From assembly GCA_964447765.1 (NCBI GenBank), contig CAYUTO010000002.1, positions 38,955 to 102,954 of the forward strand: a stretch of DNA of 64,000 nucleotides, written 5' to 3'. Positions 90 through 48,432 of the stretch are shown piece by piece. The notes under the pieces are model-generated. The model did not search any database. It worked only from the letters and a program-made list of their open reading frames with translations, and was not told where the DNA came from. Positions within the stretch are counted from its first letter, which is position 1. The number at the start of each line of letters is the position of its first letter. The stretch comes from an uncultured Gammaproteobacteria bacterium. GTDB lineage: Bacteria > Patescibacteriota > Patescibacteriia > Magasanikbacterales > UBA922. A program made the translations under genes and the position numbers.

Positions 90-2180
90 ATGGCACACGA
101 AAAAAATCCAAAAGATATCGAGGATGTAGAAGAGCTCGAACGTGAATGGAACAATGATACTCCTGGTCATGAAGATGAGGATACTCTTAAGGTTGAGGAG
201 CCTAAACATGGTGAATTTGTAGAACATGATTTGGAAACAGGGGAAAAAATAGAAAAAAAATCCGCCTTGGGTGGAAAGAAAAAAGGAAAGCATGTAGTGA
301 AACATGAAAAAAAGAAAAAACATGCACATGAAAAAGTAGTAGCGTCTGGCGTTGTTGAAGATTCTATTGAGGATGAAGTAATGATAGCCCCAACAGAAGA
401 TGGTGGCGGTCGGGGAAAAGTGATTGCAGATCAGCTTTCTCAGATTTATGAAAATAGTGATGGGTCCATGCCAGACATGAAAACATTTGAGAGTAGAAAA
501 ACGAGTAGATTTGTCCGTGCATTAATGGTTTTTTTGATTTCATGTTTATTTTTTGGAGCATCTGCATGGGTAGGACTTTTTGTACTTCAACCAAAATCAC
601 AGTTTTCTGAAACCGATGTAACACTAGAAATTTCTGGAGAAGATAGTGTGCTTGCAGGGAGTGAAGTGACATACCGAATCCGATATCGAAATGCTCAGAG
701 TGTCTCGCTTCATGATGTGGTGCTCGAAGCGCGTTTTCCTGGAGGATTTAGAATCACTACGACGACGAGACCAGGGGATGATGAGTCAAATGGGAAATGG
801 ACTTTAGGTACTCTTGATCCAGGGAGCGGAGGATATATTGACGTAACCGGAAGATTTTTTGGTGATAGTGGCGGAACACAATCAATTCGAAGCTTTTTAT
901 CTTATAAGCCAGATAATTTTACCTCTACTTTTCAGGCAGTAACCACGAAAACGATTCAAGCAAAAGCAGATGCAGTGACACTGGAAATTGGTGTAGCAGA
1001 GAGTGTCCCTCGCGGTGGAAAAACTCCACTCACTATTACGATTACGCCTACTCCGGATGTAGTGCTTGAACATGTAGAGCTCAGTTGTGATTCACTCGAT
1101 TTTACTCCAGATATCAAGAGTACTCCTGCTTCAAAAGAAGGTTCTCCTTGCTCATGGACTTTTGATGTGATACGCGAAAAAACAGTGATTGAGCTCACTG
1201 GTATGTTTGCTAGTCCAACATCTTCAAGTGATTTTGCAATCGAGCTGCGGGGATGGGAGAATGCAGATCGTATAGGGGAAGGGTTTATACTCGGTAGTGC
1301 GCAAAAGAATGTCGTATTGACTGAGTCAACTACGAATGTAAGTCTGGTCATTAACGGTGGAGCAGGAGATACGACTATTTCTCCCGGAGAAACAATGTCT
1401 GCGAGTATTGTTGTTCAAAACAAAGGAGAAACACCGTTGACTGATGTAGTAATTGAAGCGGTGATTGACGGACCATCATATAGTAATCGCAGTATTTTAG
1501 GGTGGCAAGATTTGGTGCTTACCGGAGATGCTAATGTAGGTGGGGAACAACTAACCCCAGACACCAGACGTGGAAAAATAACCTGGAACAAACAATATGT
1601 TCCTGAACTCGGATCAATTGCTCCTGGCAAGGAGGTTCGGGTGGATGTTTCAATTCCAATTCGCTCGGGGGAGCAGATTACTCTCGGTAACTTTACTACG
1701 AATAATATTGTATTTGCATCGAGCTTTACACATGGAAAAACAGATGAACGCAAAACAATTTCTTCAAATCAAATTAATCTAACGCTCGTGTCTGATTTTG
1801 CACTTAAAACAGAGTACGATCTTACTTCTACGAGTGGATTAGCTGGAACCTACGATATTTCATGGAGACTTACCAATTCATTCCATGGTTTGAAGAATAT
1901 TAAACTAGAAATGGATCTGTATGGCGATGTGGAAGTTGATTCAAGCAAATTTACGGTCGCTGCAGGTGAGATGAAATATGATGAGACAAACAAGCGTATT
2001 ACGTGGACTATACCTGAAATGCCAACAAGCGTTGATATTCTTTCAGCTGAATTCCCAGTAATTCTAAAAGCCGATAATCCTACACAAAAAGATCTTGCAT
2101 CAAAGGTGCGTATGAGTGCTGATGATCAGACGACGAATGTAGTGATAAAAAAAGTAGGGGATGGGATTACGTTGAGATAA
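90..2180 (+). CDS. Membrane-anchored surface protein with DUF11-like (conserved repeat domain) repeats. Has a K/E/H-rich ~150-aa N-terminal tail and a single TM.
   Basis: ORF track 696 aa. Charged N-terminus (HVVKHEKKKKHAHEK). TM at FVRALMVFLISCLFFGASAWVGLFVL. Repeated beta-rich segments resembling DUF11 (TYRIRYRNAQSVSLHDVVLEARFPGGF...). Confidence 0.6.
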   Translation: MAHEKNPKDIEDVEELEREWNNDTPGHEDEDTLKVEEPKHGEFVEHDLETGEKIEKKSALGGKKKGKHVVKHEKKKKHAHEKVVASGVVEDSIEDEVMIAPTEDGGGRGKVIADQLSQIYENSDGSMPDMKTFESRKTSRFVRALMVFLISCLFFGASAWVGLFVLQPKSQFSETDVTLEISGEDSVLAGSEVTYRIRYRNAQSVSLHDVVLEARFPGGFRITTTTRPGDDESNGKWTLGTLDPGSGGYIDVTGRFFGDSGGTQSIRSFLSYKPDNFTSTFQAVTTKTIQAKADAVTLEIGVAESVPRGGKTPLTITITPTPDVVLEHVELSCDSLDFTPDIKSTPASKEGSPCSWTFDVIREKTVIELTGMFASPTSSSDFAIELRGWENADRIGEGFILGSAQKNVVLTESTTNVSLVINGGAGDTTISPGETMSASIVVQNKGETPLTDVVIEAVIDGPSYSNRSILGWQDLVLTGDANVGGEQLTPDTRRGKITWNKQYVPELGSIAPGKEVRVDVSIPIRSGEQITLGNFTTNNIVFASSFTHGKTDERKTISSNQINLTLVSDFALKTEYDLTSTSGLAGTYDISWRLTNSFHGLKNIKLEMDLYGDVEVDSSKFTVAAGEMKYDETNKRITWTIPEMPTSVDILSAEFPVILKADNPTQKDLASKVRMSADDQTTNVVIKKVGDGITLR

Positions 2181-2248: not shown

Positions 2249-2467
2249 ATGATTAAACTTGGAAAATATAGGCACTACAAAGGTCATATATGCAATGTGA
2301 TTGGTATTGCAAAGCATAGTGAAAATCCTGAAGAGGAATTGGTTGTATATTCTCATCCTGATGAGAATGGTGTCGATCAGCTCTGGGCACGACCAAAAAG
2401 TATGTTTGTGAGTGACGTAGAAGTTGGGGGAAAAACAATGAAAAGATTTGAGTATGTAGGAGAGTAG
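2249..2467 (+). CDS. DUF1653 family protein
   Basis: MIKLGKYRHYKGHICNVIGIAKHSENPEEELVVY...QLWARP matches the DUF1653 signature (YRHYKG...). Start moved to the internal Met because the annotated N-terminus overlaps the upstream hairpin. Confidence 0.6.
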   Translation: MIKLGKYRHYKGHICNVIGIAKHSENPEEELVVYSHPDENGVDQLWARPKSMFVSDVEVGGKTMKRFEYVGE

Positions 2468-2488
2468 TTGTTACAAAATTTAAAAAAA

Positions 2489-2518
2489 CAGTCTTGAGTG
2501 TATCAAGACTGTTTTTTT
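2489..2518 (+). terminator. Rho-independent terminator (bidirectional; A-run upstream, T7 downstream)
   Basis: cagtcttga-gtgta-tcaagactg followed by ttttttt. Confidence 0.7.
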
Positions 2519-2521
2519 ATA

Positions 2522-2596
2522 TGGTGCCTCCAGAGGGAATCGAACCCCCATCAACGGTTCCGAAGACCGTAGTTTTATCCATTAAACTATAGAGGC
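2522..2596 (-). tRNA. tRNA-Arg (anticodon TCG)
   Basis: Reverse complement folds as a cloverleaf: acceptor GCCTCTA/TGGAGGC, anticodon stem ACGGT/ACCGT, loop CTTCGGA, T-arm GGTTCGATTCC. CCA is encoded. Confidence 0.8.
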
Positions 2597-2648
2597 ATGG
2601 TAAGTTAAAAGGCATAAGTAATAAAATTACTTATACGTTTGTAACTAG

Positions 2649-2721
2649 TGGGTTGCCTGGGGATCGAACCCAGGACCTTGGGCTTAAGAGGCCCCTGCTC
2701 TACCAACTGAGCTAGCAACCC
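2649..2721 (-). tRNA. tRNA-Lys (anticodon CTT)
   Basis: Reverse complement: acceptor GGGTTGC/GCAACCC, D-arm GCTCAGTTGGTAGAGC, anticodon loop CTCTTAA, T-arm GGTTCGATCC. No encoded CCA. Confidence 0.8.
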
Positions 2722-2806
2722 GTGATGGAATAATGGCTCACGAATAAACGTGAGCGTGAGTATATATCAAGTTGTATGTAAAATCAAGAGGTTAACTGTC
2801 AGGATC

Positions 2807-3568
2807 TTACCCAATAGGATCATCATTTTTTCGAGGTGTGACCTGAATTTTTGGCCCTTTCCATGCTTTTACCTTCAAAGCTTCTTCAGCGGCAGCAGTT
2901 TGAGCTTCTTGTTTACTGGTTCCAAATCCTTCGGCAATTTTTTCTTTATTAAGAAAGATTCCAACGACAAAGTTTTTTGCATGATCAGGTCCATCCTCAC
3001 TCATTACTTTGTATGTTGGGGTAATGCCCGTAATTTCTTGCGCTGCTTCTTGGAAGCGTGATTTTGCATCCATCCACAGTCCTTGTTCAAGAACTTCAGG
3101 AAGTTTGGTAATAATAAAACGAGTGACAAATTGTTCAGCCATTTCCCAGCCACGATCAAGGTATATTGAGCCAATCACTGCTTCAAGCGCATTCGCAAGA
3201 ATATAGTCACGTGCTTTTACATTTGAATCCTTTGATTCACCATGACTCAAAAACAAAAACTGCTCAAGATTAAGTTCTCGTGCAACTCGGGCACACATGG
3301 TGCCGTTCACGAGTGCTGCTCGCCAGTTGGTGAGCTCTCCTTCAGGATTGAGATAGTTTTCAAATAAGAATTCAGTGACTGCGAGTTCGAGAATTGCGTC
3401 ACCGAGAAATTCCAATCGTTCATTATGTCCGAGAGGGAAATCACGATTTTCATTGAGGTATGATCGATGAACAAATGCTTGTACCAATAGTTTTTTGTCC
3501 TCAAAGACAACTCCAATGGTATCTTCAATTTTGTGAAATTCTTTTTCTTCGTATACAGCGAGAGACAT
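2807..3568 (-). CDS. rnc: Ribonuclease III
   Basis: RNase III signature ERLEFLGDAILELAVTEFLF, plus a C-terminal dsRBD-like region. 253 aa. Confidence 0.9.
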   Translation of the reverse strand: MSLAVYEEKEFHKIEDTIGVVFEDKKLLVQAFVHRSYLNENRDFPLGHNERLEFLGDAILELAVTEFLFENYLNPEGELTNWRAALVNGTMCARVARELNLEQFLFLSHGESKDSNVKARDYILANALEAVIGSIYLDRGWEMAEQFVTRFIITKLPEVLEQGLWMDAKSRFQEAAQEITGITPTYKVMSEDGPDHAKNFVVGIFLNKEKIAEGFGTSKQEAQTAAAEEALKVKAWKGPKIQVTPRKNDDPIG

Positions 3569-3598
3569 AAATGGGAAAAGCGGAAATGTCTAATTGTT

Positions 3599-3660
3599 CT
3601 AATTATTCTAAATAAAGTCTAAACAAAAAGTGCGTTGAAATTATTTTTTAGAATAATTAG
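3599..3660 (-). promoter_or_regulatory. Long stem-loop in the rnc 5' leader (perfect 14-bp stem, ~34-nt loop). Candidate RNase III autoregulatory target.
   Basis: ctaattattctaaa (3599-3612) and tttagaataattag (3647-3660) are exact reverse complements, located between the rnc start and the nusB stop. Confidence 0.45.
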
Positions 3661-3700
3661 GTCAATTAGTATAATTTAAGATTTATTTAGTTAACCGATA

Positions 3701-4177
3701 TTACGTTTTTTCTTTTGGTTCCTCAGAATCATGTGCGACTTCCTTCACGACTCCTTTTTTTACCAAATCTTTGTAGAGTGCACCAAGTATTCCATTGACG
3801 AATTTTCCGCTGGTTGGTCCGCCGTAATTTTTTGCAAGTTCGATTGCTTCATTAATTGCAACTTTAGGAGGAACATCTGCGGCATTATAGAGGATTTCAT
3901 AAATACCGATACGCAAAATATTTCGGTCTACTAGAGTCATCTGTTCGACCGACCAATGTGTTGCGTATCCGGCAATATGCTCGTCGATCTCTTTCTGATG
4001 TGCGATAACACCATCAATCAGAGACTCGACAAAAGGCTCATGTTCTTCAAGTCCAACACCGAATTCGTGCATCGTCTCCTTGATAATCGCAGGAATTGCA
4101 GCGGAAGGATTACCACGAAAATCCCATTGATAGAGTGTCTGCATGGCGATTGATCGGGCAAGGTGGCGTTTGGACAT
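3701..4177 (-). CDS. nusB: Transcription antitermination factor NusB
   Basis: [20 protein letters not shown]... NusB fold signature. 158 aa. Confidence 0.85.
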
Positions 4178-4187
4178 ACTGCAAGTA

Positions 4188-4403
4188 TTATTTAGCAGCT
4201 TTGTGTGCTCGAGCGAATCGTGCTTTTCGTTTGGTAGTATTTACGACGGTTTTACCTTTGTATTTACCAGTTGCTTTGTTTGCTCGATGAGGAAGCTGAG
4301 GATTGCCGGCTTCATCGTAGGTAACATGAACTTTAGTTAATCCATGATGTGCGCGGCGTTCTCTTTGTGAACGCTTGGTGCGCTGTTTTGAGGGGACTCC
4401 CAT
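4188..4403 (-). CDS. rpmF: 50S ribosomal protein bL32 (form lacking the Zn-binding cysteines), with a C-terminal basic extension
   Basis: [20 protein letters not shown]...[15 protein letters not shown] aligns with the bL32 consensus (RRSHxALT ... LRHH..GYYKGR). Confidence 0.7.
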
Positions 4404-4543
4404 ATACAGGTTGCTACATTAAAAAATAAGGGCCATCGAGTAATTCGATGAAATATAGCTTGAGTATAGCTAATTCCAGAAAAAAAATCAAGCCCTTTCT
4501 ATATATTGCATCTACCCTCTAACTACGCTATGCTTACAGTACT

Positions 4544-5597: not shown

Positions 5598-6422
5598 ATG
5601 AGTCTGTTGACCCCAACCCAAATCAAACGTTTGTGCGAAGAGTATTCCTTGTCCCCAAGTAAAAAATACGGGCAGAATTATTTGATTTCAGAGTTACCGG
5701 TACAAAAGATGGTTGAGGCGGCGGGTATTAAACCAGGAGATGTGGTATATGAAATAGGTCCGGGCTTTGGTATTTTAACCTTTGAATTATTGAAAGCTGG
5801 CGCAGTGGTGAGAGCATTTGAAATCGAACAAAAATTAAAACCATATTGGGAAAAATATCAAGCAGAGTATCCAAATTTAGAAATTGTGTGGGGAAATGTA
5901 TTATGGCAATGGGATGAGTATGTAAAAAATGAAAAGCGTCCATATAAAGTAATTGCAAATTTGCCTTATCAAATTACGTCTGAAGTACTAGAAACCATAC
6001 TTGAATCTTCCAATCAGCCAGAGCAAGTGATCTGTATGGTGCAAAAAGAAGTGGCTGAGCGTATTGTTGCTCGTCCGGGGGATATGTCTATTCTTGCTAC
6101 CTCAATCCAGTATTTTGGAATTCCAAAGATTGTGGCAAAAGTATCTCGAGGATCATTTTGGCCGAGTCCCAAGGTGGATTCAGCGGTGATTTCAATTACA
6201 CAGATTCAACCTCGAGCTGACAGTACGATTTTTTTTAAACTTGTTAAAGCAGGTTTTCATCATAAAAGAAAAAAATTGCTCAATAATATTGTCGAAGCGT
6301 ACCATATACCAAAAACAGAGGTTGAAACGGTATTTGAAAGTCTCAATCTCAATTATAATATTCGGGCAGAGGAGTTATCGATTGAAGAGTGGGAAAAATT
6401 TTCAAAGTTACTCACAAGATAG
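5598..6422 (+). CDS. rsmA: 16S rRNA (adenine1518/1519-N6)-dimethyltransferase
   Basis: KYGQNYLISELPVQKMVEAAGIKPGDVVYEIGPGFGILT is a KsgA SAM-binding motif. 274 aa. Confidence 0.9.
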   Translation: MSLLTPTQIKRLCEEYSLSPSKKYGQNYLISELPVQKMVEAAGIKPGDVVYEIGPGFGILTFELLKAGAVVRAFEIEQKLKPYWEKYQAEYPNLEIVWGNVLWQWDEYVKNEKRPYKVIANLPYQITSEVLETILESSNQPEQVICMVQKEVAERIVARPGDMSILATSIQYFGIPKIVAKVSRGSFWPSPKVDSAVISITQIQPRADSTIFFKLVKAGFHHKRKKLLNNIVEAYHIPKTEVETVFESLNLNYNIRAEELSIEEWEKFSKLLTR

Positions 6423-6483
6423 TTTTGTGGGGTGTCTGAATTTTTGCTATACTTACGCTTGAATATATTTAAGCTCTGATTTC

Positions 6484-7152
6484 ATGAATTCGTCGGAGCC
6501 TCGACAATTAGACTCTGCACAAAAGGCTGGATTTATTTCTTTGCTTGTTTTTGCTTTAGTGACCTTTTCATTTAGTTTTCTACATTTGAGAAACACGGTC
6601 TATGGTCGTTTTACGACAGCACAACAAACGTCTTCTGAATTACAACTCGGGGAATATAGTGAAACAGTTCGTCTGCAGAGTATTGATACAGACAAAGACA
6701 CCTTGAGCGATTACGATGAGTTGTATATGTATAGCACCAGTCCCTATCTGCCTGATAGTGATAGTGATGGCAGAACTGACGCGACAGAAATTACTGAAGG
6801 CACTGATCCACTCTGTCCTGAGGGTGAGTCGTGTGGTGAAGGAGAATTTGGATCGGGTACGCCTGAGGAAATTTCACCCGAGTCACCGCTTCTAGAAGAT
6901 AGCGCGACGCCAAGCGATATTGTGCTCCAGAGCCAGCTCGGCACTGCAAGTGGAGGAGCAATTGATCCAGAAGCCGTTGCTGCAATCCTCCAGGACCCCG
7001 TACAAATCAGACAATTGATCCTAAATACGGGAAAAATATCAAAAGAAGATCTGGACCGAATCGATGATGCAACCTTGAAACAACTCGCAGAAGAAATGAT
7101 CAAAGAATATAGTGCTTCAGAAAATAATTCCTCAACCTCGACTGCTCAATAA
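6484..7152 (+). CDS. Membrane-anchored acidic protein with thrombospondin-type-3-like Asp-rich (Ca-binding-like) repeats
   Basis: N-terminal TM (FISLLVFALVTFSFSFL). DTDKDTLSDYDEL and DSDSDGRTDATE DxDxDG-like motifs. Stop lies 2 nt before the giant ORF start. Confidence 0.55.
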   Translation: MNSSEPRQLDSAQKAGFISLLVFALVTFSFSFLHLRNTVYGRFTTAQQTSSELQLGEYSETVRLQSIDTDKDTLSDYDELYMYSTSPYLPDSDSDGRTDATEITEGTDPLCPEGESCGEGEFGSGTPEEISPESPLLEDSATPSDIVLQSQLGTASGGAIDPEAVAAILQDPVQIRQLILNTGKISKEDLDRIDDATLKQLAEEMIKEYSASENNSSTSTAQ

Positions 7153-43666: not shown

Positions 43667-45778
43667 TTGTGTATGAGTACACTTCGTCTTACAACTCCGG
43701 TTGCCGAGCTCCATCGCGTGGGAAAAAATCTAGAAAATAAACTAGCCAATCTTCGGATACAAAAAGTACAGGATGTATTGTTTCATTTTCCTTTTCGATA
43801 TGAAGATTATCGTTCAGTTGTTGCAATCGCGAATGTAATGCCAGGAGTTGACCTTACGATTAAAGGTACCATTGAACTTATTGCTAATAAGCGCAGCCCT
43901 CGTAAACGCACGATGATTACTGAAGCAGTGGTTCGAGATGAGACTGATGTGATTCGAGTAATTTGGTTTGGTCAGCCATTTATCGGGAAAATATTGAAAG
44001 TGGGTGATGAAGTGTTTTTATCTGGTTCGATAAAAGAAGATATGTTTGGAGTGCACATGGCAAGTCCAGCGTATGAACGTGTGCGTGAAGACAAGCAGGC
44101 AACGCATACCGCACGCATTGTTCCTATGTATCCACTTACTGCAGGTGTGACACAAAAACAAATGCGATTTCTTGTGGAGCAAGTACTCCCGCTCGCTGAG
44201 CAAATCAAAGAATGGATTCCTGAAAGCATTCTTAAAAATAACGAGCTCATTCCATTGTCTCGTGCAATACAAAAAATTCATTTTCCAGAAAATCATGAAG
44301 AACGAACCCTCGCGGAACAAAGGCTAAAATTTGGAGAATTATTTGTCTTACAACTGCGAGCAGAGTTGATTCGCCAGGCAAATGCGAGACAAATTGCACC
44401 AAATATTGGGTTTAAAGAAAAAGAAATCCGTGAGTTTGTACAGGAACTTCCTTTTGAATTGACGGTGGATCAGAAAAAGTCTGCCTGGGAGATTTTTCAA
44501 GATATTGACCGTGGGACCCCCATGAACCGTCTTCTTCAGGGAGACGTGGGATCGGGAAAAACAATTGTTGCTGGTTTATGTGCGTATTTGAGTTTCCTTA
44601 ATGGGTATCAGACCGTTATTATGGCCCCGACAGAAATTTTGGCAACTCAGCATTTCGAAACATTTGGTAAAGTGTTTGGTGACAAGCTGAATTTTTGTCT
44701 ACTGACTGGTTCAGAAATAAGGAATTGGAAAGATGGTATTGAAGGGGAATCGAAAGCAGCACGGAAGTTGTACTTAAAAAAAGAAATTTTTGAAGGTAGG
44801 GTGAATGTTATTATTGGAACGCATGCACTTCTGACGGAAGATACACAGTTTCATAAATTAGGCCTCGTGGTAATCGACGAGCAACATCGATTTGGGGTAG
44901 AGCAGCGAAAAACAATTCGTGATAAATCGGGAATGGAAGGAATGTATCCACATTTTTTATCCATGACTGCAACGCCAATTCCACGCTCGTACGCACTGAC
45001 CTTGTATGGGGATCTTGATGTGTCGTATATCAAAACAAAACCAGCAGGGAGAAAAGATATTATTACGAGACTAGTCGAGCCAAGTAAAAGGGATCGCGCA
45101 TATGGATTTATCAGAGAACAGGTACACAAAGGGCGACAAGTGTTTGTCGTGTGTCCTTTGATTCAGGAAAAAACCAAAGAAGGTGAAAGTATGGGGGTAG
45201 TATCAGAAAAGAAAACCGTGTTGTCTGAATACGAAAAGTTATCAACAAAAATTTTTCCTGATTTGCGAGTCGACTATCTTCATGGAAAAATGAAATCAAA
45301 AGAAAAAGAAGGAATCATGAAAAAGTTCGCAGAGGGCGTTACTGATATTCTAGTTTCAACTTCTGTAATTGAAGTTGGGGTAAATATTCCAAACGCGTCG
45401 ATCATGATGATTGAAGGTGCTGAGCGATTTGGGTTGGCGCAGCTGCACCAATTCCGTGGAAGGGTGGGGCGAGCCGAACATCAGTCGTATTGTATTTTGT
45501 TTACCGAGATTGAGAGTGTAACATCAAAAGGGCGATTAGAGTACTTCGCTAAAACACTTGATGGATTTGCGCTTGCTGAATACGACCTTGAAACAAGAGG
45601 TCCAGGAGAAGTATATGGTACTGCGCAGAGCGGAATGGAAGAACTCCGTCTTGCGACTATGCGTGATCAAAGTATCATTAAAGCTGCGAGAGAATCAGCG
45701 CGAGGTATGGATTTTGAAAAGTTCCCCGAGCTGAAAGATCGGGTGCAAGAGTGGGAAGCACGGGTGCATATGGAATGA
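43667..45778 (+). CDS. recG: ATP-dependent DNA helicase RecG
   Basis: Wedge/OB N-terminus. Helicase motifs GDVGSGKT and DEQHRFGV. 703 aa. Confidence 0.9.
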   Translation: MCMSTLRLTTPVAELHRVGKNLENKLANLRIQKVQDVLFHFPFRYEDYRSVVAIANVMPGVDLTIKGTIELIANKRSPRKRTMITEAVVRDETDVIRVIWFGQPFIGKILKVGDEVFLSGSIKEDMFGVHMASPAYERVREDKQATHTARIVPMYPLTAGVTQKQMRFLVEQVLPLAEQIKEWIPESILKNNELIPLSRAIQKIHFPENHEERTLAEQRLKFGELFVLQLRAELIRQANARQIAPNIGFKEKEIREFVQELPFELTVDQKKSAWEIFQDIDRGTPMNRLLQGDVGSGKTIVAGLCAYLSFLNGYQTVIMAPTEILATQHFETFGKVFGDKLNFCLLTGSEIRNWKDGIEGESKAARKLYLKKEIFEGRVNVIIGTHALLTEDTQFHKLGLVVIDEQHRFGVEQRKTIRDKSGMEGMYPHFLSMTATPIPRSYALTLYGDLDVSYIKTKPAGRKDIITRLVEPSKRDRAYGFIREQVHKGRQVFVVCPLIQEKTKEGESMGVVSEKKTVLSEYEKLSTKIFPDLRVDYLHGKMKSKEKEGIMKKFAEGVTDILVSTSVIEVGVNIPNASIMMIEGAERFGLAQLHQFRGRVGRAEHQSYCILFTEIESVTSKGRLEYFAKTLDGFALAEYDLETRGPGEVYGTAQSGMEELRLATMRDQSIIKAARESARGMDFEKFPELKDRVQEWEARVHME

Positions 45779-45815
45779 TGGTGTGTAGATACGTCAAAAG
45801 AGTGGAAAATCGTCC

Positions 45816-45854
45816 CCAGTTTGCATTGACAAACTGGGTTTTTTTGTGTATACT
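45816..45854 (+). promoter_or_regulatory. recG rho-independent terminator whose loop contains the -35 box of a consensus promoter TTGACA-17-TATACT driving the island-D gene
   Basis: ccagtttg-cattga-caaactgg then gttttttt. TTGACA at ~45826 and TATACT at ~45849. Confidence 0.65.
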
Positions 45855-45919
45855 CCGCCAGTCTGTTCCACAGGGGCAGGCACCGTCACGCACGAAAGTG
45901 CATTATCAGGAGTCTCACT

Positions 45920-46405
45920 TTGAAAGAATCGGTTCTCAATCGGATCAACAAGATGTCCTATGAGGAGGGTGCCAACCTCCTCACGAACCTCCGCCTGAAC
46001 GCGATCCCTCCGTACCGTCTCCACACCCACCCCGTCGAGTTCACGATCCACACCTTCGGCGTCGACTGCGAGGCCAGGGTCAAGTCGGACACGATGGATA
46101 CGCGTCGTGCCATGAGTGATCTCGGCATGCCGCGGGTCCAGGAGATCGCCAACACGATCTACTTGCACCCGACGCTCGGGGAGGATGCTCTGAACGCGAT
46201 GCTCGACGGCAAACGTGTCGTGATCAACGTCCAGCGTCACCCGAAGACGGAGACGAAGCCCGCGATGCAGGCGGTTCCGATGGCGCCGGTCGAGGTCATC
46301 GCCTCGGTGCTCGACGACGTGCCGGAGGACAAGAGCAAGAAGAAGGTCGAGAACAAGTCTCGGCGCAAGCAGCAGCCCGCGGTCTCCGCGGAATTGCTCC
46401 ACTAG
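45920..46405 (+). CDS. Hypothetical protein (GC-rich island D, ~65% GC). TTG start with AGGAG SD.
   Basis: ORF track 161 aa. AGGAG sits 7 nt upstream of TTG. Opposite-strand ORF 45794..46492 is Arg-rich, typical of an antisense artefact in GC-rich DNA. Confidence 0.55.
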   Translation: MKESVLNRINKMSYEEGANLLTNLRLNAIPPYRLHTHPVEFTIHTFGVDCEARVKSDTMDTRRAMSDLGMPRVQEIANTIYLHPTLGEDALNAMLDGKRVVINVQRHPKTETKPAMQAVPMAPVEVIASVLDDVPEDKSKKKVENKSRRKQQPAVSAELLH

Positions 46406-46558
46406 GTCAAATGATCTAGTAAGAGAAGCAGGCGGTCGCCCATGGCGACTGTCCTGCGTCTCGAATACAAAATCCACACTCGAATCACGCAATAAGTCTC
46501 ATCTATATGGGAACTATCGCGGGAGGGCGAGTGTGGATTTTTGTTTTGCAGTGTATTA

Positions 46559-46591
46559 TTCCTCTCCTAAGAGGAGAGGTTAGGTGAGGTC
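46559..46591 (+). repeat. Left terminal inverted repeat: palindromic core cctctcctaagaggagagg plus aggtgaggtc
   Basis: Pairs with 47049-47080 (gacctcacct plus the same palindromic core). Confidence 0.6.
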
Positions 46592-46628
46592 ATTCGAAGG
46601 GTATAATTATGAGTGACTATCTTATTGC

Positions 46629-47000
46629 TTAAGTAGTTAACTGAGAAGAAATATTGCAGGCATTTTTTATTTTCTCTATTACACTTTCTCTTTCAAATAA
46701 TACTTTATCATTTTTAAATCGTATTATTTTGAATCCTTTATTTTTTAGAAAATTTTCTCGTCGGCGATCATATTCTTTCTGTTCGTCATGAACCGGTCCA
46801 TCGAGTTCGATTACCAATCTAAATTCATGACAATAAAAATCAACAATAAATGATCCAATACTGTATTGTCTTCTAAATCTTATTCCTATTTTTCCACCAT
46901 ACAATTCTCGCCAGAGTATTTGCTCAGCCTTGGTCGGATTTTTTCGAAGTAATTTTCTCTTATTAATTAAAGAACGTTTGTTTGAATAAACATACGGCAT
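46629..47000 (-). CDS. DUF559 endonuclease-domain protein (Vsr/MutH-like restriction endonuclease fold)
   Basis: LWRELYGGKIGIRFRRQYSIGSFIVDFYCHEFRLVIELDGPVHDEQ...ENFLKNKGFKIIRFKNDKVL matches DUF559. AAGGAGGG SD. Confidence 0.7.
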   Translation of the reverse strand: MPYVYSNKRSLINKRKLLRKNPTKAEQILWRELYGGKIGIRFRRQYSIGSFIVDFYCHEFRLVIELDGPVHDEQKEYDRRRENFLKNKGFKIIRFKNDKVLFERESVIEKIKNACNISSQLTT

Positions 47001-47048
47001 AATCCCTCCTTGTTAAGTTTTAGTATAGAGTAAAGTCGAAGCTTCGGT

Positions 47049-47080
47049 AGACCTCACCTGTCCTCTCCTAAGAGGAGAGG
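47049..47080 (+). repeat. Right terminal inverted repeat of the DUF559 cassette
   Basis: gacctcacctg + tcctctcctaagaggagagga. Confidence 0.6.
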
Positions 47081-47091
47081 AACGTTTTAAG

Positions 47092-48432
47092 TTAAGTCTT
47101 CTTTATCAACTCTTCAATATTTTTAACTTCAATCATATTCACTCCAGGTTGTTCGGTAATTTTTTTTCCGGCAGGAACAATGATACGTTTCATGCCAAGA
47201 TCAACTGATTCTTTGATTCGTTTTTCATTATGTCGCACTGAGCGTACTTCTCCGCCGAGTCCTACTTCACCAAACACTACCGTGTCACGACCGAGAGATT
47301 TATCTTTGTACGAGCTTGCAATTGCGAGGCATACTGCCAGATCAGCTGCTGGTTCTTGAATCTTTATTCCACCCACAATATTCAGGTGAATATCGTATTG
47401 TGCAAGAGTGAGTCCTGCGCGTTTTTCAAGCACCGCAGTGAGCAGATGTAAACGGTTCAGATCAAATCCACTTGCTTTCCGAACGGGGTATCCAAACGTA
47501 GTCTTATGAACTAATGCTTGTACTTCTACGAGAAGTGGGCGAGTACCTTCCATCACACAAGTCACCACATTCCCGGGCATATCCTCTCCGCGTTCGCGAA
47601 GTAGTGATGCCGAAGGATTTGCAACCGAGATAAGACCTACTCCTTCCATTTCAAAAATTCCTACTTCATCAGTCGCACCAAATCTATTTTTTACTGCACG
47701 TAAAATTCGATACGTATGATACTGGTCTCCCTCGAGGTAGAGCACGGTATCGACGAGATGTTCAAGAGTTTTTGGTCCCGCGACACTACCTTCTTTTGTC
47801 ACGTGCCCGATAATCACAATCGGTGTTCCAGATTGCTTTGCTACATCGAGAAGTAGCGTTGCGCATGCGCGTACCTGAGACACTGATCCAGCTTCGCCCT
47901 GTACCTGTTCACTTGAGATTGTCTGGATCGAATCAATAATCGCAAGTTTGGGTTTGTGTGCAGAAATAGTTGCTATAATCGTTTCAACCGAGGTTTCATT
48001 CGAAAGGGAAAGAGTGGGGGAGGTAATATTCAGTCTATCAGCGCGCATCTTTACCTGGCTTACTGATTCTTCTGCAGAAATGTAGAGAGAAGAGGGAATT
48101 GCAGCTGCCAGCTGTAATGCGAGAGTTGATTTACCAATACCAGGTTCTCCACCAAGTAACATAAAACTACCAGGGACAATTCCGCCACCAAGTACACGAT
48201 CAAGTTCTGAAATCGTAGTTTGTGTTCTTTCGGTCGAATGGGAATCAACGCTTGCGAGTGTGTGAATTGAAGCGGGTTGGGAAGTAGACGTGGTGGTATT
48301 GTTTTCTGGAATTTTCTCAGCTGTTTCTATGACCGTACCCCACGAGCCGCATTCGAGGCATCTCCCAATCCATTTTTGGTATTGAGCATCACACTTGGAG
48401 CAGGCGAAAATTGTTTTTGTTTTTGAGGACAT
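47092..48432 (-). CDS. radA: DNA repair protein RadA (Sms)
   Basis: N-terminal C4 zinc finger (CSKCDAQYQKWIGRCLECGSW). RecA-like Walker A (GEPGIGKST). Lon-like C-terminus. Confidence 0.9.
   Translation of the reverse strand: MSSKTKTIFACSKCDAQYQKWIGRCLECGSWGTVIETAEKIPENNTTTSTSQPASIHTLASVDSHSTERTQTTISELDRVLGGGIVPGSFMLLGGEPGIGKSTLALQLAAAIPSSLYISAEESVSQVKMRADRLNITSPTLSLSNETSVETIIATISAHKPKLAIIDSIQTISSEQVQGEAGSVSQVRACATLLLDVAKQSGTPIVIIGHVTKEGSVAGPKTLEHLVDTVLYLEGDQYHTYRILRAVKNRFGATDEVGIFEMEGVGLISVANPSASLLRERGEDMPGNVVTCVMEGTRPLLVEVQALVHKTTFGYPVRKASGFDLNRLHLLTAVLEKRAGLTLAQYDIHLNIVGGIKIQEPAADLAVCLAIASSYKDKSLGRDTVVFGEVGLGGEVRSVRHNEKRIKESVDLGMKRIIVPAGKKITEQPGVNMIEVKNIEELIKKT

Follow-up and report, generated by a model that had tools for sequence, protein, structure and literature searches.

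What kind of element is a small nuclease gene that sits between two structured, inverted repeats? This question is raised by a stretch of 64,000 nt of contig CAYUTO010000002.1 (assembly GCA_964447765.1, forward strand), hereafter the window, in which an earlier note had picked out a DUF559 gene with a repeat at either end and proposed a miniature mobile or selfish cassette. All feature coordinates refer to the window (W); labels such as L003 or L180 denote individual comparison loci. Repeats called BoxC, PIT (potential intrastrand triplex) or TM (triplex motif) were already known in E. coli in the 1990s, and hundreds of genomes contain them. To our knowledge, neither their origin nor a partner protein nor a function has been found so far. 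Stand-alone DUF559 proteins, such as E. coli YcjD and N. gonorrhoeae NGO0050, form a very large family for which we know of no role. The cassette in the window may join this orphan enzyme family to that orphan repeat family.

The motif class is tied specifically to the DUF559 clade of the window gene in many phyla, including E. coli ycjD. Moreover, motif, gene and motif behave as one unit in unrelated contexts, and this unit is present or absent at the radA/recG site in Magasanikbacteria. The explanation we prefer, with a probability of roughly 0.55, is a motif-gene-motif cassette of about 520 bp whose YcjD-like nuclease would act on the folded motifs and be copied in a homing-like manner.

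Anatomy of the cassette

An inverted-repeat search of the window found arms of 41 nt (46559-46599 and 47042-47082), 80% complementary, around the only DUF559 gene of the whole window, in agreement with the bracketing that had been described; the coordinates and sequences given earlier hold within 1-2 nt. The outer part of each arm is a 20-nt core, TCCTCTCCTAAGAGGAGAGG, which forms an 8-9 bp stem with a 3-nt loop. It occurs twice in 64 kb (46560-46579 and 47061-47080, a spacing of 501 nt) against 0.02 occurrences expected from shuffles, and the observed count was reached in 0 of 100 shuffles. Next to the cores lie the short arms AGGTGAGGTC (46582-46591) and GACCTCACCT (47050-47059), which are exact reverse complements, as claimed, and which taken alone are not above chance. 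The inverted repeat extends 8 nt further inward (ATTCGAAG and CTTCGGTA). On a given strand the loop has one and the same sequence at either end; the cores are therefore a 20-nt direct repeat, and the inversion is confined to the arms. This refines the earlier description as terminal inverted repeats with identical cores.

Both units are intergenic, with their arms facing each other, and the whole cassette measures about 520 bp. The gene has a GC content of about 30%, compared with about 41% for the window and 63% for a neighbouring island. As had been reported, it encodes a 123-amino-acid DUF559 protein behind a Shine-Dalgarno sequence. The orthologous set used for comparison comprises L003, L005, L006 and L007; proteins 82-94% identical occur in Candidatus Magasanikbacteria metagenome-assembled genomes (MAGs). 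The features are as follows.

46560 to 46591, plus strand: candidate triplex unit on the 3' side of the gene, read from the sequence; hairpin of -7.6 kcal/mol as DNA, z -3.5
46561 to 46591, plus strand: blocks of this unit, namely CCTCTCCT (46561-46568), loop AAG, AGGAGAGG (46572-46579), loop TTA, and GGTGAGGT(C) (46583-46591)
46592 to 46599: inner extension ATTCGAAG, which pairs with 47042-47049 and is kept in five orthologous loci
46629 to 47000, minus strand, stop included: gene for a DUF559/YcjD-like, predicted Vsr-fold nuclease of 123 amino acids (PF04480)
47004 to 47010, minus strand: Shine-Dalgarno sequence AGGAGGG, 3 nt before the ATG; near-invariant in the orthologues, with one G-to-T change in L007
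47037 to 47046: palindrome CGAAGCTTCG in the 5' untranslated region, overlapping the inner extension CTTCGGTA (47042-47049); invariant in the orthologues
47050 to 47081, minus strand: candidate triplex unit on the 5' side of the gene; hairpin of -8.6 kcal/mol; blocks on the minus strand (T)CCTCTCCT, loop CTT, AGGAGAGG(A), loop ACA, GGTGAGGT(C); on the plus strand, arm 47050-47059 and hairpin 47061-47081
46580 to 47080: segment of 501 bp missing from the empty site of L180, containing one hairpin copy, both arms and the gene

In the window the ancestral TAA stop has become TTA, and the gene runs on for three codons (LTT; 46629-46640) past the end of its orthologues.

The ends as intrastrand-triplex motifs

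BoxC, PIT and TM_ECO are names of one potential intrastrand triplex motif with the E. coli consensus CCCTCNCCC N3-6 GGGNGAGGG N3 GGGNGAGGG. Holder et al. (2015, PMC4666352) present in-vitro evidence that TM_ECO forms a triplex and connect the motif with genomic instability. The grammar has three parts: first a run of pyrimidines, then purines complementary to them, and last a block that mirrors the purines under the triad rule G*G, A*A and T*A, with short loops in between. Both units of the window follow this grammar with 8/8 Watson-Crick pairs and 8/8 triads, at zero mismatch. With TTA or ACA as the loop and the arm GGTGAGGT antiparallel to AGGAGAGG, the triads are G*G, G*G, T*A, G*G, A*A, G*G, G*G and T*A. 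A strict finder (7-nt blocks, a perfect hairpin and at most one triad mismatch) returned exactly two motifs in the 64 kb, namely the two ends of the cassette, while 20 shuffles gave 0-1.

The same rule appears in a wider collection. Repeat units were scanned for with explicit pattern and triplex-rule scanners instead of a covariance model, because MAFFT placed the length variation at the 5' end of the unit and not in the loop. Among 140 unique units, the mirror rule fitted best in 70 and a direct-copy rule in 37, with 33 ties; the mirror rule is clearest in asymmetric stems, for example GGAAGGGG followed by GGGGAAGG. In the 3' unit of L007, a change in the stem is matched in the third strand, so that all three strands are co-ordinated. 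From the strict-finder hits, the mirror rule and the L007 change, we read the arm as the third strand of a purine-motif triplex, which could fold so in single-stranded DNA, rather than as a usual transposon terminus.

The window units do not fit the E. coli consensus. They read CCTCTCCT N3 AGGAGAGG N3 GGTGAGGT, their blocks are 8 nt long and richer in A/T, which stands at the outer positions, and there are only two copies in 64 kb, enclosing a gene. They share with BoxC/PIT/TM the three-block layout with a mirror purine third strand, a TTA-type second loop, a related core (GGAGAGGGTTAGGGTGAGGG in E. coli and AGGAGAGGTTAGGTGAGGTC in the window), the intergenic position and the frequent arrangement as inverted pairs with facing arms (E. 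coli copies 1+2, 7+8 and others, five such pairs in all). Judged by sequence, the window units are thus a variant of the BoxC/PIT/TM class and not TM_ECO itself.

The unit recurs far beyond the Magasanikbacteria. A DNA pattern, AGGRGAGGNNAGGTGAGGTC, which specifies half a stem and the arm, was scanned against one genome per species and matched at 91 loci; under uniform composition, chance alone would account for about 35. The matches come from Cyanobacteria, Bacteroidota, Ignavibacteria, several Patescibacteria lineages, Gammaproteobacteria and others, and 73 distinct units, a few of them from the orthologous loci, also carry the other half of the hairpin, which the pattern leaves unspecified. 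MAGs with multiple copies occur in Ignavibacteria, Saccharibacteria and Cyanobacteria. In some loci the units lie in longer tandem arrays (L014 2312-2585, L010 1047-1846, L024 7435-7760 and L086 2623-3479), with a period of 127 nt in a Chitinophaga MAG and as 146-nt and irregular arrays beside DUF559 in Cyanobacteria; the unit can therefore belong to larger repeat modules. Two loci (L031 6024-6068 and L061 around 2434-2474) contain a perfect palindrome, GACCTCACCTAACCTCTCCT-loop-AGGAGAGGTTAGGTGAGGTC, with a 20-bp stem in which the arms flank one hairpin. It looks like a gene-less form of the layout with arms outside.

Could the units simply be an ordinary pair of bidirectional terminators, or a chance inverted repeat? 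A stable GC-rich hairpin does stand in each unit directly after a stop codon, and L180, a relative without the gene, keeps a lone hairpin after radA. Nevertheless, the terminator scan was empty at both hairpins, a core seen twice at an expectation of 0.02 argues against chance, and the unit, third strand included, is found again in many phyla. An Rfam scan of 45500-47300 at E<=1 matched no family. We find this explanation hardly credible. The earlier note had allowed that the repeat might turn out to be merely a terminator pair unique to this locus; neither hairpin is followed by a T-run, and the unit is widespread.

A related idea makes the units cis-regulatory or insulating elements, which would control a toxic nuclease through termination, mRNA stability or masking of the ribosome-binding site, with the dispersed copies serving unrelated uses. 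In favour of this, one unit occupies the 5' and the other the 3' untranslated region, each at a conserved distance, the purine blocks resemble Shine-Dalgarno sequences, the pyrimidine blocks could mask AGGAGGG, and the hairpin stems covary. Against this, the hairpins lack the T-run of a terminator, and the arms of L005, L006 and L007 drift independently and uncompensated while the mirror relation of the third strand is kept. Both orientations of the unit also occur in the family. Furthermore, PIT elements showed neither promoter nor terminator activity in earlier work, and RNA does not adopt purine-motif triplexes (PMC4666352). Taken together, this makes a regulatory role of the ends very unlikely. 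Two related ideas were discarded. Pairing of the 5' and 3' untranslated regions over a long range through the arms is not conserved, since the arms diverge without compensation in the three loci just named and only the relations between hairpin and third strand are kept. Anti-Shine-Dalgarno mimicry was dropped as the cause of cross-phylum conservation because repeat types of the TCCCCC/GGGGGA kind share the grammar without resembling a Shine-Dalgarno sequence.

Association of the motif with YcjD-like genes

Does the repeat travel with DUF559 genes? To quantify this, 80 metagenome loci with 81 DUF559 genes were chosen solely by protein similarity to an alignment of DUF559 homologues. Strict triplex motifs occurred at 0.90/kb within 250 nt of a DUF559 gene and at 0.037/kb in the remaining sequence of the same 80 loci (more than 250 nt away), a 24-fold enrichment. 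At least one motif was found within 250 nt of 42 of the 81 genes. By other measures, 57/73 small DUF559 genes had a GC-rich pyrimidine/purine hairpin within 220 nt, and 21/61 genes had a flank-to-flank inverted repeat well above shuffles. In the opposite direction, 11 of the 91 loci from the DNA-pattern scan had a DUF559 gene within a few hundred bases of the motif. The co-occurrence that the earlier note had proposed as a check is thus seen from both sides.

Brackets like that of the window recur. In L020, from a different Magasanikbacteria genome, another DUF559 gene (39% identical protein) is bracketed likewise at a different locus, and L144 has a bracket of the same kind. The arms face the gene in the window, L020, L032, L038, L069, L102 and L144.

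In E. coli, ycjD adjoins CCCTCGCCCCTCTGGGGAGAGGGTTAGGGTGAGGGG. In strain K-12 the downstream neighbour of ycjD, at a distance of 168 nt, is TM_ECO no. 9 (1351204-1351239); the ycjD stop codon is covered by a degenerate inverted copy of the motif. The protein is a full-length homologue of the window protein, as is NGO0050, and its gene, present in 62% of E. coli genomes, stands beside a BoxC/TM unit; unlike the window gene, it is not bracketed, the inverted pair with its one degenerate member lying downstream only. The gene alternates with the eefRABCD operon and sits where that operon was lost. Phylogroups A, B1 and C carry ycjD, and B2, D, E and F lack it; TM loci number roughly 63 in E. coli. 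In the K-12 locus (L179, NC_000913.3 1351204-1351760), the ycjD start is directly preceded by a perfect 17-nt inverted repeat, TCACCTCATTCTGACAA.

Among the open-access papers searched, none links DUF559 or YcjD with BoxC or intrastrand triplexes, and the words endonuclease and ycjD are absent from Holder et al. (PMC4666352); the published work describes no associated protein. The elements and the protein family are known; their coupling into a bounded cassette across phyla, including ycjD, is new to this literature.

The cassette as a discrete unit

If motif, gene and motif form one unit, similarity should end at the motifs. This is observed in four Ignavibacteria cassettes (L032, L038, L046 and L069), which align at 66-73% identity over a span that opens about 8 nt ahead of the 5' motif and closes with the 3' motif. 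Their flanks are unrelated, with no alignment beyond this span, and two of them (L038 and L046) are on contigs of one MAG. No target-site duplication was seen at these cassettes. Gene-less motifs in the same lineage share a short prefix, (T)AACTTT. L032 has a second copy of the 5' end (1155-1185, plus strand; 1192-1230 of the aligned excerpt) with a 15-nt prefix, AACTGTTCTAACTTT, about 40 nt past its 3' motif; a former tandem cassette may have left it behind, or a target may have been duplicated.

The second line of evidence is the site itself. The relatives compare with the window as follows.

L003 and L005: RadA 97% and 94% identical to that of the window; radA-recG gap with the DUF559 cassette
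L180: RadA 84%; gap of 536 nt without DUF559, with one armless hairpin
L181: RadA 83%; gap of 1023 nt without DUF559, with an unrelated hairpin
L182: RadA 73%; gap without DUF559, with a 96-amino-acid GIY-YIG gene
L183: RadA 67%; gap of 598 nt without DUF559

In L003 and L005 the DUF559 gene lies between radA and recG exactly as in the window. Only the recG side is visible in L006, and L007 is too short to reach recG. L006 is weaker evidence for intact synteny. On this JGI contig the recG region (2295-4412) is split into several called fragments, and the gene calls upstream of DUF559 include no recognisable RadA; frameshifts or poor assembly quality could be the cause. L180-L183 keep the thioredoxin-like gene, radA and the convergent recG and lack DUF559, which supplies the empty sites whose comparison had been suggested earlier. 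RadA identities put the filled genomes in one clade, and parsimony on these relationships favours one gain of the cassette.

In L180 the radA stop is followed by a single armless hairpin, CCCTCCCCTAAAAGGAGAGG, at the very place where filled genomes have hairpin, arm, gene, arm and hairpin, and then by the conserved downstream block. The gap in the alignment with the filled loci consists of the arms, the gene and one hairpin copy. The L180 hairpin is a chimera of the upstream 5' half and the downstream 3' half as in L003. Two histories would fit: the hairpin is the ancestral target, which insertion duplicated, or the two hairpins recombined and what lay between them was deleted.

Within the filled clade the ends are maintained. 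A hairpin is present on both sides in all orthologous loci, and the arms are intact in most. Stems change in compensatory pairs (CCTCTCCT/AGGAGAGG, CCTCCCCT/AGGGGAGG and CCTTCCCT/AGGGAAGG), with 8/8 pairs in all ten units; the 5'-side unit of the orthologues is the compensated variant CCTCCCCT/AGGGGAGG. The ratio of nonsynonymous to synonymous substitution rates (dN/dS) among the orthologous genes is 0.15-0.43, which means purifying selection. The cassette is therefore inherited vertically in the window clade, and its ends are under constraint.

The gap of L182 holds a GIY-YIG gene (6516-6806) between direct repeats of about 65 nt (6376-6441 and 6840-6900) that start with AATAYGTCATTGCGA and end with GCAATCTA. 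This is a different repeat, and there are no triplex motifs in the flanks of the gene. The site is therefore a landing place for small nuclease genes, each type with its own repeat. L183 has a lone GTCATTGCGAGG element after radA.

Such a site also fits a passive association, in which fragile, recombination-prone triplex motifs gather foreign or dispensable small genes and the nuclease has nothing to do with the motifs. Motif loci are more rearranged than control sites (Holder et al., PMC4666352), and the radA/recG gap is a variable hotspot that holds different GC-rich inserts in each relative as well as the GIY-YIG gene. The position of ycjD at the site of the eefRABCD loss and the persistence of motifs in E. 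coli genomes without ycjD agree with it as well. However, the 24-fold enrichment was measured against all other genes of the same loci, and the symmetric bracketing at fixed short distances and the similarity that stops at the motifs in four unrelated contexts speak against it. Moreover, the GIY-YIG gene in the same hotspot carries a different repeat. We regard passive association as unlikely.

The encoded protein

The protein matches PF04480 (DUF559) at E 3.4e-34, with 117.4 bits against a cut-off of 20.6. It matches the NCBIfam YcjD model NF007294 over its full length at E 2.7e-22, below the equivalog cut-off. Profile comparison with the Protein Data Bank gave 3HRL (N. gonorrhoeae NGO0050; E 2e-31) and 3R3P (the catalytic domain of I-Bth0305I; E 4e-4). 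These two are also the closest folds to the AlphaFold model (mean predicted local distance difference test score, pLDDT, 86; predicted template modelling score, pTM, 0.80), with a TM-score of 0.84 on the target for 3HRL, while Vsr (1CW0/1VSR) and PvuRts1I-type enzymes match less well. The same protein is present, exactly, on two Logan contigs.

Residues 65-71 form an ExDGxxH block. All of 40 homologues share D54, E65, D67 and H71, and the position after H71 varies. The four residues correspond to the catalytic block of the EDxHD type, as defined for homing endonucleases that include I-Bth0305I (PMC3239194). From residues and model, the protein is likely an active nuclease, and by the same comparison its closest structurally characterised family of known role is that of the EDxHD homing endonucleases. 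A Pfam search found no transposase domain, and a PADLOC search for known defence systems gave weak partial matches to nuclease domains only.

A nuclease of this kind may also serve the host. It could be a domesticated, structure-specific enzyme that clears hairpins or triplexes which stall replication, the motifs being substrates or sensors that tie its expression to the load, and nothing about it would be selfish. In line with this, the gene is under purifying selection and vertically inherited in five genomes, next to radA and recG, both of them repair genes; Vsr, which has this fold, is a repair nickase; and PIT elements block DNA polymerase in vitro (work cited in PMC4666352). A resident repair gene is harder to reconcile with its patchy presence in close relatives and E. 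coli lineages, its atypical GC content and the cassette copies at unrelated sites, two of them in one MAG. We therefore consider a host repair function quite unlikely.

Proposed explanation and related systems

The cassette may work as follows. The nuclease would recognise the motif in its folded state, as a hairpin or triplex that single-stranded or supercoiled DNA exposes, and would nick or cut there. Repair or strand transfer would then copy the cassette, or its ends, into hairpin-type sites, as in homing. Single motifs and gene-less inverted pairs could be non-autonomous derivatives left over time, by analogy with the relation of REP (repetitive extragenic palindromic) sequences and their hairpin-forming doublets, REPINs, to RAYTs (REP-associated tyrosine transposases). 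In the window clade, entry most likely took place in a common ancestor, at a hairpin just downstream of radA, with vertical inheritance since. A broader proposal is that YcjD-like DUF559 proteins are the missing partners of BoxC/PIT repeats in general, recognising the folded end, spreading the repeats and themselves, and causing the instability there. We put this forward tentatively, as possible with the odds somewhat against it.

How does this explanation stand against the data as a whole? The idea of a mobile cassette gains support from the co-occurrence of motif and gene, the motif-bounded similarity in unrelated flanks and the presence or absence of the cassette among relatives, with its mode of movement inferred from these patterns. 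Several points weigh against it. The cassette is fixed at one locus in the five genomes of the window clade, where no current mobility is visible, and the 64-kb window has no other copy of the motif. There is no clear target-site duplication: the identity of the 20-nt core is peculiar to the window, hairpin stem and loop differing between the cassette ends in L003, L005 and L007. The L180 hairpin would fit recombinational deletion as well as an ancestral target. Orientation is variable, with arms pointing outward commoner overall and those of the window pointing inward. Motif type does not simply track the protein tree, since proteins only 30-38% identical share near-identical CCTCTCCT-type units; co-evolution of repeat type and protein tree, tried as an idea, was not seen. 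In E. coli, BoxC/TM units are present in 5426/5426 genomes (at a median of 19 places) and ycjD in 3378/5426, so motifs persist without the gene on that time scale. The pattern had 0 matches in IMG/VR viral contigs, and phage carriage was dropped. A search by Holder et al. for functional correlations or a tie to mobile elements had no positive result (PMC4666352). Finally, cutting, binding and transposition by the nuclease are steps that we infer from sequence patterns.

The BoxC/PIT identity of the ends, which the earlier note had not recognised, changes the kind of element under discussion: it has no transposase, and no clear target-site duplication was seen. The nearest analogies are REPIN/RAYT in logic and the EDxHD homing endonucleases in enzymology. 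As in REP/REPIN and RAYT systems (Bertels and Rainey 2011, PMC3116915), a single-copy nuclease-type gene is flanked by inverted, short, structured repeats, gene-less copies of the repeat occur elsewhere as singlets or inverted doublets, and inheritance is mostly vertical. The inverted flanking repeats are present at the window gene itself, whereas dispersal within one genome is seen in other lineages and in E. coli and not in the window. By contrast, RAYT is an HUH/Y1 transposase of the IS200 family and the window protein has a predicted Vsr/PD-(D/E)XK fold. REP is a GTAG-tagged, lineage-specific palindrome, and here a triplex-type motif is near-identical across phyla and persists in E. coli genomes that lack ycjD. 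By this comparison the cassette at most works like the REP/RAYT pairing and is not a member of it.

With the EDxHD homing endonucleases (I-Bth0305I, PMC3239194), the window protein shares the catalytic fold and the ExD...H residues. Like free-standing homing genes, it is encoded by a small, selfish-looking gene that is present or absent at one site, and a relative has a GIY-YIG gene in the same gap. However, the window gene is outside any intron or intein, its product lacks the extra N-terminal DNA-binding region of the I-Bth0305I type, and structured terminal repeats are normally absent from homing genes. Miniature inverted-repeat transposable elements (MITEs) and insertion sequences also have short inverted ends, form discrete units and leave gene-less derivatives. 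The cassette differs from them in having no transposase of a known family and no consistent target-site duplication, and in having ends that are self-folding and also exist alone, as a single end.

The link between DUF559 and BoxC gives both families a testable hypothesis in a model organism, namely that YcjD binds or cuts the 23 TM_ECO sites of E. coli K-12. If true, it would explain the rearrangement hotspots at motif loci. It would also mean a new type of selfish or domesticated element with non-B DNA ends, and a nuclease that reads DNA structure rather than plain sequence. From E. coli to bacteria of the candidate phyla radiation, such an element would be a second, mechanistically unrelated counterpart of REPIN/RAYT.

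Neighbouring sequence

Beyond the cassette, positions 45950-46400 of the window form an island of 60-66% GC in a 41% GC genome. It contains overlapping open reading frames on both strands (161 amino acids on the plus and 232 on the minus strand) with no Pfam or NCBIfam match. Its equivalent varies in content and length in every relative (L003, L005, L006 and L180-L183), and small GC-rich proteins are encoded there in L180 (6563-6823) and L181 (about 6850-7140).

A long, strongly conserved hairpin occupies positions 46469-46542, between this island and the cassette. It consists of an A-run, then a stem, then a T-run (AAAATCCACACTCG...CGAGTGTGGATTTT), and its inner stem is conserved as well. Its counterparts are at 6458-6529 in L003, 6460-6531 in L005, 1558-1629 in L006, 6370-6441 in L180, 6724-6802 in L181 and 7287-7364 in L182. 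The hairpin has no Rfam match, and seven of its pairs are changed on both sides with pairing kept. Possible roles are those of a bidirectional terminator or a small RNA; alternatively, it may mark the edge of the variable island.

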